64,000 bases of DNA, from assembly GCA_963747405.1 (NCBI GenBank), contig CAVVFG010000011.1:5018-69017 (forward strand), read 5' to 3'. Shown piece by piece: positions 47,517 to 64,000 of this stretch. The notes under the pieces are model-generated. The model was given only the letters and a program-made list of their open reading frames with translations. It was not told where the DNA came from and made no database searches. The translations under genes and the position numbers were made by a program. This stretch comes from an uncultured Actinomycetota bacterium. Its GTDB lineage: Bacteria; Actinomycetota; Actinomycetes; Actinomycetales; Dermatophilaceae. Every line of letters begins with the position of its first letter. Position 1 is the first letter of the stretch.

Positions 47517-48185
47517 TCAGCCGGTCACGACCTCCGGCGCCTCCGCATGAGCGCGCACCAGCGCCACCACGAGCCGGTCGGCGGCGTCGTTGGCGCGGGC
47601 CAGCATCCGGGTGGTGGCCGGCGTGGCCAGGGCATGCCGGCAGGCCAGCTCGCCGAGCACGTCGAGCAGCAGGCTGCAGCAGCGCTGGAACGCCGCCACG
47701 CTCTCGCCGAGGTTCCCGCTTCGGCGGCGCGCGAGCCTGCCGTGCATCGCCGCCGCCTGCAGGGCCGGGGCCAGCGCGGCCTCACGTTCCCGTCGGGTGC
47801 TGCCGTCGACGTAGCCCAGCACCCCGTCGACCAGGGTCCGGCCACCGAGAGCGAGCACGGCGTGGGTCTGCTCGTCGGCCCCGTCGAGCCACGAGACGTC
47901 CGGGCACGCGGCGGAGATGCTGGCGCGCAGGATGTCGACCACCGTGTCCGTCGAGCCACCCAGGGCGGCGATCGACGGCTCGGTGCTCGCGGCATCGGGC
48001 AGCAGGTGCTCGAGCGTCGAGCGGGCGTAGCGGCGGTGACCGCCCGGGGTCGTGAAGGTGACGATCTTCCCGGCCACGCTCCATCGCCGCAGCGTCGCCG
48101 GGGAGACCCCGAGCATGGCGCTCGCCTCGTTGACCCCGAGCCAGACCTCACGGTCCTCGGCAAAGGGGTGCGGACCGGTGACCAT
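47517..48185 (-). CDS. BldC/MerR-like HTH regulator with C-terminal all-helical domain
   Basis: WLGVNEASAMLGVSPATLRRW...GKI...TPGGHRRY. TGATG-coupled to the decaheme gene. Confidence 0.85.
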   Translation of the reverse strand: MVTGPHPFAEDREVWLGVNEASAMLGVSPATLRRWSVAGKIVTFTTPGGHRRYARSTLEHLLPDAASTEPSIAALGGSTDTVVDILRASISAACPDVSWLDGADEQTHAVLALGGRTLVDGVLGYVDGSTRREREAALAPALQAAAMHGRLARRRSGNLGESVAAFQRCCSLLLDVLGELACRHALATPATTRMLARANDAADRLVVALVRAHAEAPEVVTG

Positions 48186-49981
48186 CAGCTTCCTCCTGAA
48201 GGGAGGTGAGCGTTCGACCTGGGCAGCACGTTGTCCTTGTGGCACTCCTCGCAGTACGCCTTCTGGTGGCAGACGGCACAGGCCTGCGTCCCGCCGGCGA
48301 CCTTGGCCGACTGCGCGTGGTTGTAGAGCATCTCGTCGTGGCTCACCTTGATGGCGCCGCTCTTGTGGCAGTTCTCGCAGTAGCTCGTCTGGTGGCACAC
48401 GCCGCAGGTGGCCGGGTTGGCCGAGGTGGTGCCGGCGACGACGCGGTGGTCGAACACCCACAGCGGGTCCCGGTGGTCGGCCGGCCGGGCGCCGAGCGGC
48501 ACGTTGGCGACCGTCTGCGATCCCTGCGGAGCGGTGTGGCAGGTCTCGCAGGTCGACGGGATGGTCTCCTTGGTCAGCTGGCCCTTGACGACCTTGTAGT
48601 GGGCGCCGTCGTGGCAGCGGAAGCACCCGTTGGAGCTCTGGTGCCCCAGGTTGGTCGGGTAGGTGCCGCTGCGCACGTTCATGTGCGAGTCGACCGTCTC
48701 GTCGAAGATCTCGGTGAGGCTCCTGGTCGCCGCCGTGATGTCCTTGGCCTGGTCCTTGGCCACGAGCGGGTACTTGCTCGTGTAGAAGTCGGACAGCTTG
48801 CTGATCGCCTCGCGGCCCTCCTCGTCGGTCGCGTACCGCTGGGCCAGCAGGGCGACGGAGTTCCGCTTGACGAAGGGCAGCGTGGGGCTGATCCGGCCCT
48901 CGGCCATGGCGGCGTCGACAGCCCGGTCGGCGGTGGGGGAGTCGTGCCCGACCCGGTTGTGGCAGTCGAGGCAGTCCATCGTGCGGGTGGTCTGGGTGGC
49001 GGTGAGCCGGGCCAGGTCCTGCCCGGCGTTGATCGACTCGCGCACCTGCCCCTCGGCGATGAACTGCTCGAGCTCACCGGTCTTGCTGTCCTTGAACTGC
49101 ACGCTGTCGATGACCTGCTGCTGCTCGTCGGGCGAGGTGTACGTGACCTCCTGGAGCACGTGCCAGTGCGTCGACACCGGGTCGGGGCCATCGGCGTTGG
49201 CCGGGCGGATCAGCACCGCGAGGTCGTTGCGGGTGTTCTTCTCGTCGCGCTCGAAGGAGGCCCGCACGTGCAGCTTGCTCGGCTGGCCCGGCTTGGCCAT
49301 CTGCGACAGGGGGTGGCACTTCTCGCAGGTGTTGGCCGTCGGCGGCATCTCGTCGTGGGCGATCGGCGGGATCGGCGTCGGGTAGGTGGCGGTGACCAGG
49401 CGGTAGAGCTCCCTGGTGCCGGCCAGCTTCGCGCTGACGAAACCCATCACTCCGGGGTTAACGTGGCACTCGCCGCACGAGACGTCCTGGTGCGGGCTGG
49501 CCTCGAAGGCGTTCTTCTGCGGCGTCATCGTGTGGCAGGTCGTGCAGAAGGCCGCGCTCTCGGAGTACTCCACGAGATGCACGGTGCCCAGGGTGCCCAG
49601 CACGCCGAGCAGCAGCACGCCGCCGACCGTCGCGAGGATGCCGCGGGTCGTGGTCGGCAGCACCTTCAGCAGCCGTGCCTTCCAGCGAGCCCAGAACCCC
49701 GGCTTCGCCGAGGTCGCCGCCGCGCCGTCCGCGCCGTCCGCGCCGTCCGCGCCGTCCGCGCCGTCCGCGCCGTCCGCGCCGTCCGCGCCGTCCGCGACGT
49801 CCACGCCGTCCGCGCCGTCCGCGACGTCCACGGGAGCAGCGGTGGTGCCGGGGTCAGGCACGGCGGTGCCGGCATCCCCCTCGGGCACGGCAGAGCCGCC
49901 GTCCCCCTCGGGCACGGCGGTGCCACCATCCGGTACCGGGTCGGGGCCGGCGGTGCCGGGATCGTCGCCGGAGGTGCTCAT
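48185..49981 (-). CDS. Membrane-anchored NapC/NirT-type decaheme cytochrome c (ImcH-like)
   Basis: One TM helix, then CTTCHTM, CGECH, CEKCH, CLDCH, CFRCH, CETCH, CGVCH, CENCH, CAVCH, CEECH. Confidence 0.9.
   Translation of the reverse strand: MSTSGDDPGTAGPDPVPDGGTAVPEGDGGSAVPEGDAGTAVPDPGTTAAPVDVADGADGVDVADGADGADGADGADGADGADGADGAAATSAKPGFWARWKARLLKVLPTTTRGILATVGGVLLLGVLGTLGTVHLVEYSESAAFCTTCHTMTPQKNAFEASPHQDVSCGECHVNPGVMGFVSAKLAGTRELYRLVTATYPTPIPPIAHDEMPPTANTCEKCHPLSQMAKPGQPSKLHVRASFERDEKNTRNDLAVLIRPANADGPDPVSTHWHVLQEVTYTSPDEQQQVIDSVQFKDSKTGELEQFIAEGQVRESINAGQDLARLTATQTTRTMDCLDCHNRVGHDSPTADRAVDAAMAEGRISPTLPFVKRNSVALLAQRYATDEEGREAISKLSDFYTSKYPLVAKDQAKDITAATRSLTEIFDETVDSHMNVRSGTYPTNLGHQSSNGCFRCHDGAHYKVVKGQLTKETIPSTCETCHTAPQGSQTVANVPLGARPADHRDPLWVFDHRVVAGTTSANPATCGVCHQTSYCENCHKSGAIKVSHDEMLYNHAQSAKVAGGTQACAVCHQKAYCEECHKDNVLPRSNAHLPSGGS
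49721..49828. repeat. 9-bp coding VNTR (CGCGCCGTC)x8 plus 4 degenerate units, encoding (GAD)n
   Basis: Perfect units at 49721-49792, in the N-terminal tail of the decaheme protein. Confidence 0.9.
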
Positions 49982-63356: not shown

Positions 63357-64000
63357 GCGAGCCGATCCGCATCCTGCTCGTCGACGACCAGCCGCTCTTT
63401 CGTGGTGCGATCGCCGCGCTGCTCGCCAGCCAGCCCGACATGGAGGTGGTCGGCGAGGCCGAGAACGGCCTCCTCGGGGTCGAGAAGGCCCGCGAGCTGC
63501 ATCCCGACCTCGTCATCCTCGACGTCGACATGCCGGTGATGAACGGCGTCGAGGCGGTGCGGCTGATCCGCGAGCAGGTGATGGACGTCAAGGTCATCAT
63601 GCTGACCGTCTCCGACGTCGAGGACCACGTCATGGACGCCCTGCGCCACGGGGCGCACGGCTACCTGCTCAAGGACCTGCGCCCCGAGCAGCTGCACGAC
63701 ATGATCCGCTCGGTCATGCGCAACGAGACGCCCATCTCACCGGCCGTCGCCGGCCGGCTGCTCCGCGAGATCCGCGACGGCGGCGCGAAGAAGGTCACCT
63801 CACCGTCCCCGGAGCAGGCCCGGTCAGTGGTGACGCCGCGCGAGCTGGAGATCCTCCGGCTGGTGGCCGTGGGGATGAGCAACAAGGAGATCGCCAAGCG
63901 GCTCGTCATCACCGAGGGCACGGTCAAGAACCACGTGCACAACGCCCTCGAGAAGCTGCACCTCGACAACCGGATCCAGGCTGCCGCGTACGTGATCCGG
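63353..64000 (+). CDS. NarL/LuxR response regulator, 3'-truncated by window edge
   Basis: IRILLVDDQ, DLVILDVDMP, GAHGYLLKD, TPRELEILRL...NKEIA...TVKNHVHN. ATGA-coupled to the kinase. Confidence 0.93.
   Translation, partial: MSEPIRILLVDDQPLFRGAIAALLASQPDMEVVGEAENGLLGVEKARELHPDLVILDVDMPVMNGVEAVRLIREQVMDVKVIMLTVSDVEDHVMDALRHGAHGYLLKDLRPEQLHDMIRSVMRNETPISPAVAGRLLREIRDGGAKKVTSPSPEQARSVVTPRELEILRLVAVGMSNKEIAKRLVITEGTVKNHVHNALEKLHLDNRIQAAAYVIR

Follow-up and report, generated by a model that had tools for sequence, protein, structure and literature searches.

The 64-kb stretch of DNA analyzed here (64,000 nt of contig CAVVFG010000011.1 from an uncultured member of the Dermatophilaceae, Actinomycetota; hereafter, the window) carries an operon for three multiheme c-type cytochromes, referred to below as the decaheme, octaheme, and hexaheme proteins, along with genes for cytochrome maturation, accessory, and regulatory proteins (Table 1). 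Because the G+C content of the window is 72%, raw lists of open reading frames (ORFs) are crowded with spurious frames; the real frames and starts were picked by the G+C content at third codon positions (GC3). When CxxCH motifs were mapped in all six frames across the window, 23 of the 25 fell within three minus-strand genes of the 47517-61254 region, namely, 10 in the decaheme gene (48253-49546), 7 in the octaheme gene (55286-56294), and 6 in the hexaheme gene (57877-58873), with the remaining two isolated at positions 1685 and 38114. A CX3CH site of the octaheme protein, CTLTCH, adds an eighth site to its seven CxxCH motifs, so that the 10+8+6 heme motifs counted in the initial annotation, which had been made by a model from the sequence alone, are all accounted for.

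The operon consists of 11 co-oriented minus-strand genes (47517-61254) in the order TPR1, NHL, hexaheme, octaheme, TPR2, CcdA, ResB, CcsB, ResA-like, decaheme, and helix-turn-helix (HTH) regulator, with intergenic gaps of -4 to 252 nt and overlaps at three junctions: ResB/CcsB (4 nt), ResA-like/decaheme (4 nt), and decaheme/HTH (1 nt, the start codon of the HTH gene overlapping the stop codon of the decaheme gene). The co-orientation and translational coupling proposed initially are thus apparent, and the proposed gene content (System II, NHL, tetratricopeptide repeat [TPR], and HTH genes and a divergent two-component system) was borne out by family assignment with Pfam and NCBIfam, in which every assignment was confirmed. 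In six of the proteins (TPR1, NHL, octaheme, TPR2, ResA-like, and decaheme), basic residues are followed by a single hydrophobic helix at the N-terminus, a predicted topology that fits a membrane anchor with the bulk of the protein outside. The ORF of the divergent kinase opens at 61329, and GC3 favors the ATG at 61563 as its start. Scans for promoter and terminator consensus sequences returned background levels only. The G+C content of the cytochrome cluster equals that of its surroundings, and the recent transfer suggested by the original label "island" is accordingly not in evidence.

Table 1. Predicted genes and RNA features of the multiheme cytochrome locus (coordinates refer to the window)
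Feature	Coordinates	Strand	Evidence
TPR1, membrane anchor and extracytoplasmic TPR domain, first operon gene	60274-61254	-	Pfam TPR_16 1.9e-27
NHL-repeat beta-propeller, N-terminal membrane anchor	59188-60261	-	Pfam NHL 6.9e-26
Secreted hexaheme c-type cytochrome, 396 aa	57854-59044	-	six CxxCH, Sec signal peptide
GC-rich hairpin 3' of hexaheme gene	57774-57825	-	RNAfold
Membrane-anchored octaheme cytochrome, 901 aa	55035-57740	-	7 CxxCH + 1 CX3CH
TPR2, membrane-anchored, directly upstream of System II genes	54066-54782	-	Pfam TPR_19 7e-9
CcdA, DsbD-type transmembrane thiol reductant transporter	53283-54026	-	Pfam DsbD_TM 3.6e-17, 62.8 bits
ResB/CcsB-type System II heme-handling protein	51758-53269	-	Pfam ResB 1.6e-72, 245 bits
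CcsB/ResC (CcsA-type) System II synthase subunit	50820-51761	-	TIGR03144 202 bits, cut-off 187.6
ResA-like membrane-anchored thioredoxin, WCAAC	49978-50763	-	Pfam AhpC-TSA 2e-27; NCBIfam ResA 107 bits, below cut-off 170
Decaheme cytochrome, 598 aa	48185-49981	-	Pfam Cytochrom_NNT 44.1 bits, cut-off 24.1
MerR/excisionase-type HTH regulator	47517-48185	-	Pfam HTH_17 4e-10, MerR 4e-8; PDB 6AMA 5e-7
Sensor histidine kinase, divergent from operon	61563-63356	+	Pfam HisKA_3 and HATPase_c; two N-terminal transmembrane segments
NarL/LuxR-type response regulator, cut by window end	63353-64000	+	Pfam receiver and GerE

The hexaheme protein has a Sec signal peptide ending at AYA/DN (AVPAYA/DNGPH) and no membrane anchor, and its last CxxCH lies 2 residues from the C-terminus. 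Of 77 homologs, 71 retain the six motifs, and exactly six histidines outside the motifs are invariant (H36, H65, H175, H215, H334, and H356), which would suffice for bis-His ligation of all six hemes. In general layout, with six CxxCH motifs, secretion, a length of ~400 aa, and the final motif at the C-terminus, the protein conforms to the OmcS family. When a profile built from 39 hexaheme homologs was compared with the PDB, the top three matches were MtrA, OmcE (7TFS; E = 0.014), and OmcS (6EF8; E = 0.024). The match to MtrA comprises the doubled-CXXCH motif only, and that to OmcE covers residues 20-212, aligning the heme 1 CxxCHxxH and the LECGSCH motif. The match to OmcS spans hemes 3-4, with identical 99-residue spacing and the shared motifs LxCxSCHDPHG…YR and (E/A)WCxxCHT.

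OmcS-like sequences were sought by a protein search with an OmcS fragment, which yielded nine partial proteins, one of them leading to a locus denoted L080. The resulting OmcS-like profile combines two L080 genes, hand-stitched across frameshifts, with fragments, and its quality is limited by the error-ridden contig; the mature N-terminus of the L080 proteins, FHSGGVAECEGCH, agrees with the OmcS segment seen in the PDB profile match. Comparison of the hexaheme family with this profile using hhalign gave 98.4-98.6% in local mode and 99.4-99.5% in global mode, the global alignments spanning 305-308 columns and keeping the six motifs in register. Taken separately, the N-terminal part (hemes 1-2) gave 95.7% and the C-terminal part (hemes 3-6) 97.2% (E = 3e-11), compared with 0.2-0.5% for reversed-profile controls and 7-17% for local alignments of decaheme controls with either the OmcS-like or the hexaheme profile. 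Identity between the hexaheme and OmcS-like proteins is ~24%, but both share a characteristic pattern, in which hemes 1, 3, and 5 are of the CxxCHxxH type, hemes 2, 4, and 6 are not, and heme 6 is C-terminal. Taken together, these profile comparisons provide good support for the hexaheme family being a remote homolog of OmcS.

The octaheme protein consists of an N-terminal transmembrane (TM) anchor, a ~200-aa Pro/Thr/Ser/Ala-rich linker, a middle domain without any family match, a second linker, and a C-terminal heme domain, and 40 of 46 homologs likewise have 7+1 heme motifs. In hhalign comparisons, the heme domain scored 98.9-99.6% against the hexaheme family and 96.7-98.5% against the OmcS-like profile. 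Judging by these alignments, it is a tethered paralog of the secreted hexaheme protein with two extra hemes.

The decaheme protein comprises an Asp/Gly/Ala-rich cytoplasmic tail, one TM helix, a tetraheme head of the NrfH/NapC type, and six more hemes. The tail (at ~49700-49980), predicted to be cytoplasmic and to precede the TM helix, is of low complexity, with DGA repeats (DGADGADGADGADG). The heme-1 site directly follows the TM helix, as in NrfH, NapC, and CymA. The only solved relative found by PDB sequence search is NrfH (2J7A; E = 2.4e-9), and the alignment retains FCxxCHxM and the Lys preceding the AG(A/T)R(D/E) segment. The Met of CXXCHXM is present in 38 of 41 decaheme homologs, as is the Lys, and the position of the NrfH Asp is occupied by Glu or Gln; in the NrfH structure, these residues surround the menaquinol-oxidizing heme 1. 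The score against the NrfH equivalog model is 57.5 bits, short of the cut-off of 134, and the protein is therefore a member of the NapC/NirT/NrfH family rather than an NrfH.

A homolog from a cultured actinobacterium has already been catalogued. Zhong & Shi (2018) listed the Intrasporangium calvum protein WP_013492697.1 among ImcH homologs, remarking that it is one of two with a single TM; it has 569 aa, one TM, and ten motifs at positions 104/127/177/295/411/436/496/505/538/547 (PMC6295460). The spacing of its first six motifs is 23/50/118/116/25, compared with ~24/49/110/117/20 in the ImcH proteins of the same table, and the decaheme family shows the same spacing, a comparison that rests on the published table and heme spacing rather than on direct alignment with ImcH sequences. 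In I. calvum PheN6 (locus L007), the decaheme protein is 64% identical to that of the window over the best matching segment and is encoded in the same operon. The decaheme protein departs from ImcH as more narrowly defined in having one TM rather than three, no CX3CH, and ten CxxCH motifs instead of seven. Given the NrfH alignment, the conserved Met and Lys, the ImcH listing, and the heme spacing, the decaheme protein is an ImcH-like putative menaquinol dehydrogenase with an NrfH-type head.

The maturation genes form a complete System II set, with the ResB and CcsA/ResC-type pair, CcdA, and a ResA-type thioredoxin all encoded next to one another. TPR1 matches TPR_CcmH_CycH at 1e-9, below the cut-off, and TPR2, possibly an apocytochrome chaperone, shows weak matches to the same family (0.0026) and to NrfG (0.0064). 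Both TPR genes hold conserved, colinear positions in related loci, and the NHL gene lies directly upstream of the hexaheme gene in nearly all of them. The same surroundings recur at the OmcS-like locus L080 (3137-12014; 53% G+C, on a long-read contig with frameshifts), where a TPR gene, an NHL propeller gene, and three tandem OmcS-like genes follow one another in the order of TPR1, NHL, and hexaheme in the window, and where the best tblastn matches of the window TPR1 and NHL are the TPR and NHL genes of that locus. Because TPR and NHL repeats are promiscuous, this parallel is an argument from synteny and not a proof of orthology. In L080, the OmcS-like genes are followed by genes for a lipoprotein and a YVTN-type propeller. 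In Dethiobacter, a Gram-positive iron reducer, NHL and TPR genes have likewise been described within multiheme clusters (PMC10376724). Among the regulators, the HTH protein carries a C-terminal domain of ~150 aa; neither this domain nor the sensor domain of the kinase had an informative match in Pfam or the PDB, and the PDB matches of the kinase cover only the catalytic core of DesK/VraS/DevS.

To place the operon in a broader context, we scanned one genome per species for hexaheme relatives and retrieved 79 loci, 49 of which had enough flank. Relatives are encoded in 293 species genomes, and a search of 1.84 billion cluster representatives with the hexaheme profile returned 414 clusters at E<=1e-30, rising to 1336 at E<=1e-10; the window sequence itself matches soil metagenome runs. 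The loci closest by hexaheme identity belong to Actinomycetales/Actinomycetota metagenome-assembled genomes (L001 and L009; 92-93%), Ornithinibacter (87%), and Intrasporangium (73-77%). Within Actinomycetota, carriers include Ornithinibacter, Intrasporangium, Dermatophilaceae, Micrococcales, Propionibacteriales, and Kineosporiaceae, as well as Solirubrobacterales and other Thermoleophilia; within Chloroflexota, they include Chloroflexia, Anaerolineaceae, Dehalococcoidia, and Limnocylindrales. Cultured carriers are I. calvum and Intrasporangium sp. DVR. Nine core genes are all colinear in 39 of the 49 well-covered loci, across both phyla. A kinase homolog adjoins the cluster in 43 of these 49, the HTH gene is present in 32, and a homolog of the NarL-type regulator (55-97% identity) is present in 59 of the 79 loci, in nearly all cases upstream of the cluster. 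The hexaheme gene is duplicated or triplicated in tandem in several loci (L023:7825-10981, L065:8207-11725, and other Solirubrobacterales and Limnocylindrales loci); in Solirubrobacterales, the octaheme gene is absent, with two or three tandem hexaheme genes instead.

This sampling bears on the possibility that the cytochromes serve an enzyme. NrfH-type anchors usually have catalytic multiheme partners, octaheme enzymes exist (Otr, MccA, ONR, and HAO), and the octaheme protein has one atypical CX3CH site, so that the octaheme or hexaheme protein might act on nitrite, hydroxylamine, sulfite, tetrathionate, or a metalloid, fed by the NrfH-like dehydrogenase. We consider this very unlikely. As the initial annotation had stated, no catalytic partner is apparent: CxxCK is lacking in the 11 cluster proteins, and no molybdoenzyme, NrfA, or other reductase family was detected among the window ORFs scanned. 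Neither the hexaheme nor the octaheme protein has a significant PDB match (E<=0.001) to NrfA, Otr, ONR, MccA, HAO, or OcwA. No resemblance to Thermincola OcwA or to any other catalytic multiheme protein of solved structure emerged from the PDB sequence searches, apart from a trace match to a chain of an octaheme nitrite reductase (8rv0; E = 9.1). The octaheme heme domain is instead a paralog of the OmcS-like hexaheme protein, the octaheme protein is dispensable in many lineages, and the six conserved distal histidines of the hexaheme protein match its six hemes, leaving no obviously open catalytic site. A terminal reductase just beyond the window in homologous clusters, which had been named at the outset as an observation that would refute the proposed electron export, was likewise sought and rejected: clustering of all ORFs in the 10-kb flanks of the 79 loci recovered no conserved terminal reductase, but only regulators, an AhbD-like radical SAM protein, and lineage-specific genes.

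The radical SAM gene is the sole recurrent extra gene. It encodes a TIGR04053 radical SAM/SPASM protein (420 bits; next best, AhbD) and occurs near the cluster in 14 loci from two distant clades: ~2.3 kb into L003, L004, L005, and L009, and in Solirubrobacterales (e.g., L033:18869-20152). In relatives, the gene falls just past the point that matches the end of the window. The AhbD-like protein might supply heme without oxygen.

In environmental RNA, the best-covered part of the cluster corresponds to close relatives of the hexaheme gene. Twenty-two metatranscriptome runs hold 14-27% of the hexaheme 31-mers, and contigs of eight of them were mapped onto the window at at least 85% identity. The hexaheme gene has the highest contig depth in all eight (sediment, peat, soil, ice, and freshwater). 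In two small freshwater-sediment runs (X21 and X22), coverage is essentially of the hexaheme gene alone. Run X31 covers nearly the whole cluster, with depths of 189-1966 in the hexaheme bins versus 0.1-68 (mostly 4-68) elsewhere, except for one bin at the 3' end of CcsB. This second peak (50604-51137, at the CcsB 3' end and the ResA-like 5' end), which is seen in several metatranscriptomes, reaches 268 in X31, and comprises many partly fitting contigs, is probably due to cross-mapping from the conserved housekeeping ccsB of other organisms. The metatranscriptome contigs break off close to the boundaries of the hexaheme gene. This RNA pattern is consistent with a product required in much larger amounts than those of the other operon genes.

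A candidate determinant of this ratio lies immediately downstream. Approximately 30 nt past the hexaheme stop codon, the 113-nt spacer between the hexaheme and octaheme genes (RNAfold, -52 kcal/mol) contains a hairpin with a 22-bp GC-rich stem (16 + 6 bp) and a 7-nt loop, CUCACCC, past which RNA depth drops sharply. The hairpin is kept at the same site in all 11 relatives checked (from L001-L010, L015, and L016), among them distant ones in which the stem sequence has changed on both arms. The hairpin is probably a terminator or an mRNA-stabilizing element, and it probably sets the high ratio of hexaheme to downstream mRNA. On the other side of the gene, the 143-nt spacer preceding the hexaheme frame (59045-59187) has a G+C content below that of its surroundings. 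This spacer appears to be a conserved 5' untranslated region, because the segment AGGAAATTCACCGCACAACAACAGGAGTACA recurs nearly unchanged in the metatranscriptome contigs of relatives. No convincing Shine-Dalgarno sequence or promoter was recognized in 59045-59187.

Overall, we consider it fairly probable, from gene content and homology, that the operon and the adjoining two-component system encode a multiheme electron conduit leading from the quinone pool of the membrane to the exterior of a monoderm cell. The gene set is compatible with the quinol-to-outside route drawn in the initial annotation, given the NrfH-like module of the decaheme protein, its place in the ImcH-homolog family, and the remote homology of the hexaheme protein to OmcS, for which the controls were negative. 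In the proposed scheme, the System II proteins (CcdA, ResB, CcsB, and ResA-like) would attach heme to the exported apocytochromes, with TPR2 working alongside them and one or both TPR proteins possibly assisting. Electrons would pass from menaquinol to the decaheme protein, then across the wall through the stalked octaheme protein, where present, and on to the hexaheme protein. The latter, made in excess, would form the distal extracellular part, as an OmcS-like polymer or a wall-embedded multimer, from which electrons could be handed to acceptors that are insoluble or macromolecular (Fe(III)/Mn(IV) oxides, humic matter, or electrodes, for example). By analogy with the genes adjoining OmcS-like genes, the NHL propeller and TPR1 may function in hexaheme export or assembly. 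The kinase and the NarL-type regulator, together with the MerR-like HTH protein, would turn the operon on in response to a signal that is probably related to redox state or oxygen.

Several observations weigh against this scheme. Single-sequence (phmmer) searches of the PDB with the hexaheme protein returned no similarity to OmcS, and in hhalign the best local segment corresponds to the doubled-CXXCH module, a generic element also matched by MtrA. A first AlphaFold2 model of the hexaheme protein (39 sequences) had a predicted local distance difference test (pLDDT) score of 50 and was unusable, and a second (109 sequences) reached a pLDDT of 80.4 and a predicted template modeling score of 0.79. 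OmcS is mostly coil. A Foldseek search of the PDB with the second model returned nothing at E<=0.001, recovering neither OmcS (6EF8) nor OmcE, a negative of low power, because the model lacks hemes and the OmcS fold is coil-rich; with 6EF8 not recovered, membership of the hexaheme protein in the OmcS fold is not confirmed structurally. The octaheme gene is present in 27 of the 49 well-covered loci and absent from ~45%, so that the octaheme "stalk" is not essential to the system. The transcripts are contigs of relatives (at least 85% identity) with undefined strand and may include carried-over DNA, and contig depth reflects expression poorly. Finally, the direction of electron flow is not readable from the sequence, and many of the host lineages are regarded as aerobes.

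The last two points leave room for a conduit operating inward, in which extracellular donors (Fe(II), Mn(II), reduced humics, cathodes, or partner cells) would supply electrons to menaquinone or to O2 or nitrate reduction. Soil bacteria with an aerobic or facultative lifestyle are common among the hosts, the sequence is neutral as to direction, and NapC/NirT/CymA-type proteins are reversible in some systems, with the CymA and CbcL/MtoC families implicated both ways (PMC6295460). Nevertheless, we regard inward flow as unlikely. The decaheme protein groups with ImcH, whose only role implicated to date is in quinol oxidation (PMC6295460), and the outward direction is favored for this reason. Moreover, the iron-oxidation markers Cyc2, MtoA-type proteins, and cupredoxins were not found among the window ORFs scanned, and the AhbD-like radical SAM gene near the cluster in 14 relatives hints, weakly, at anoxic use.

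If the conduit runs outward, its distal part could take two forms. In the first, the hexaheme protein would remain a monomer or form small oligomers in the wall, as in the Thermincola type, and acceptors would be reached only at the cell surface, without any nanowire. The failure of Foldseek to recover the OmcS filament structure, the identity of only ~24% to OmcS-like proteins, and the beta-strand-rich stretches of the AlphaFold2 model (residues 101-170 and 273-296) all agree with this alternative, as does the fact that the known models of Gram-positive extracellular electron transfer feature wall-embedded cytochromes, not filaments (PMC7829351). On the opposite side stand the very large excess of hexaheme mRNA and the tandem gene amplification in some lineages, which fit a structural, polymer-like product, as well as the TPR and propeller genes held in common with the OmcS-like locus L080 and the invariance of the six extra histidines, including that of the heme-1 CxxCHxxH. 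This histidine (His65, CASCHRAH) presumably corresponds in position to the inter-subunit ligand of OmcS, but its invariance does not discriminate polymerization, because the same residue belongs to the generic doubled-CXXCH motif. On balance, a wall-bound conduit without a nanowire is a serious possibility, although we would stop short of calling it probable. In the second form, the hexaheme protein would polymerize into a filament on the Gram-positive cell, with the octaheme protein as a basal subunit passing through the peptidoglycan and the NHL and TPR proteins as assembly machinery. OmcS filaments are ~4 nm wide. We advance the filament only tentatively and hold it to be somewhat doubtful.

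The rest of the window holds ordinary actinobacterial genes, including those for LpqB, HPF, SecA, NAD-glutamate dehydrogenase, PdtaS, a Tad set, and an FtsK/SpoIIIE-FHA protein; such flanks (LpqB, SecA, NAD-glutamate dehydrogenase, and PdtaS) and the closest loci, which are from Actinomycetota, agree with the host assignment made from the sequence at the outset. The Tad/Flp pilus set (CpaF ATPase, TadB, TadC, two TadE-like proteins, and one TadG-like protein; 42845-47486, plus strand) is convergent with the operon, and a further TadE/TadG-like ORF lies at 5280-6998. We did not count the Tad genes as part of the system, Tad homologs being found in 0 of the 79 loci, most of which end at or just past the HTH gene. 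Adjoining the Tad genes is a gene for a 1468-aa FtsK/SpoIIIE-family ATPase with an N-terminal FHA/YscD-like domain (38413-42819, minus strand), which may be an EccC-like secretion ATPase.

Respiratory electron export through thick monoderm walls to minerals, humic matter, or electrodes is known from a few anaerobic Bacillota only, and whether Gram-positive cytochrome "nanowires" exist is an open question in the field. The operon described here unites homologs of the two best-studied Geobacter parts, the ImcH type and the OmcS type, with a heme-attachment system of its own in a single transcription unit, and it is conserved in hundreds of species of Actinomycetota and Chloroflexota living in soil, peat, groundwater, and sediment. 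If the proposed function is correct, abundant lineages of "aerobic heterotrophs" would join the iron-, manganese-, and humics-respiring organisms of soil. Should the filament form hold as well, hundreds of species would possess monoderm nanowires, strongly expressed in situ; to our knowledge, no earlier cytochrome nanowire system has been described from monoderms. The question is directly testable because cultured carriers exist, namely, I. calvum and Intrasporangium sp. DVR.

The literature searched contains no description of the operon as a unit or of its spread across Actinomycetota and Chloroflexota, and no experiment on it. The novelty is less than the initial annotation implied, the parts having precedents: the decaheme family was catalogued in 2018, and in 2020 an OmcS homolog was reported in a Coriobacteriales genome, with few neutrophilic Actinobacteria known to have multiheme cytochromes (PMC7399161). 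The osc (omcS companion) operon of G. sulfurreducens followed in 2025 (Shen et al. 2025); as summarized in PMC13194489, it is reported to encode factors for the folding, secretion, and morphology of OmcS filaments as well as OmcS paralogs, and Shen et al. refer in their title to "widespread and ancient" machinery for OmcS assembly. A 2026 preprint on conserved multiheme clusters in peat was also considered, but concerns porin systems of Acidobacteriota and Verrucomicrobiota, other than the present cluster.

Among known systems, the ImcH-OmcS route of Geobacter shares with the operon an ImcH-like inner-membrane multiheme quinol dehydrogenase, represented here by the decaheme protein with matching heme spacing, and a secreted six-heme cytochrome of the OmcS family with six colinear motifs. 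Further likenesses are the tandem hexaheme paralogs of some lineages, which recall the omcS/omcT/oscC arrays of Geobacter, the TPR and beta-propeller genes that also adjoin OmcS-like genes, and the sensor kinase and response regulator genes next to the cytochrome genes, as with GSU2506/2507, which adjoin omcS. The differences are substantial as well. The host is a monoderm without a porin-cytochrome complex or a PpcA-type periplasmic triheme carrier. Geobacter ImcH has three TMs and a CX3CH first site, whereas the decaheme protein has one TM, a CxxCHxM first site, and three extra hemes. With OmcS-like proteins, the hexaheme protein shares only ~24% identity, and its model did not retrieve 6EF8 in Foldseek. 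In addition, System II maturation genes are part of the operon itself, the regulator is of the NarL type rather than sigma-54-dependent, and the operon includes a membrane-tethered, linker-stalked octaheme protein assigned to the OmcS family, of which we know no Geobacter counterpart. The OmcE filament (7TFS) is the second-best PDB match of the hexaheme profile, but has four hemes, a marginal E-value, and no support from Foldseek.

The multiheme chains of the Bacillota Thermincola potens, Carboxydothermus ferrireducens, and Dethiobacter alkaliphilus are likewise from monoderms, combine anchored and secreted multihemes with NHL and TPR genes inside the clusters, and start with a quinol oxidase of the CymA/NapC type. 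Their terminal proteins, OcwA and OmhA, have 9-11 hemes and are related to NrfA and octaheme reductases, not to OmcS (PMC7829351), sequence searches with the present cytochromes gave no match to them, and the hosts are strict anaerobes, whereas the present cluster occurs in Actinomycetota and Chloroflexota. Because OcwA and OmhA have these relationships, with OcwA resembling octaheme nitrite/sulfite-type reductases (PMC7829351), Thermincola is not the precedent for an OmcS-like hexaheme protein that the initial annotation had taken it to be. The quinol dehydrogenases NrfH, NapC, NirT, and CymA share with the decaheme protein a single N-terminal TM directly followed by heme 1, the CXXCHXM motif and conserved Lys of NrfH, and a Cytochrom_NNT domain scoring above the cut-off, but the decaheme protein differs from NrfH in its ten rather than four hemes, the Glu/Gln in place of the Asp, and the lack of an NrfA partner. 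As for maturation, the four functions of the Bacillus System II (ResABC and CcdA) are adjacent here too and show translational coupling, with the difference that the set lies inside a multiheme operon, following a TPR protein with faint CcmI/NrfG-like similarity. Thus, the system is a widespread, uncharacterized monoderm variant of the ImcH/OmcS type and not a categorically new one.

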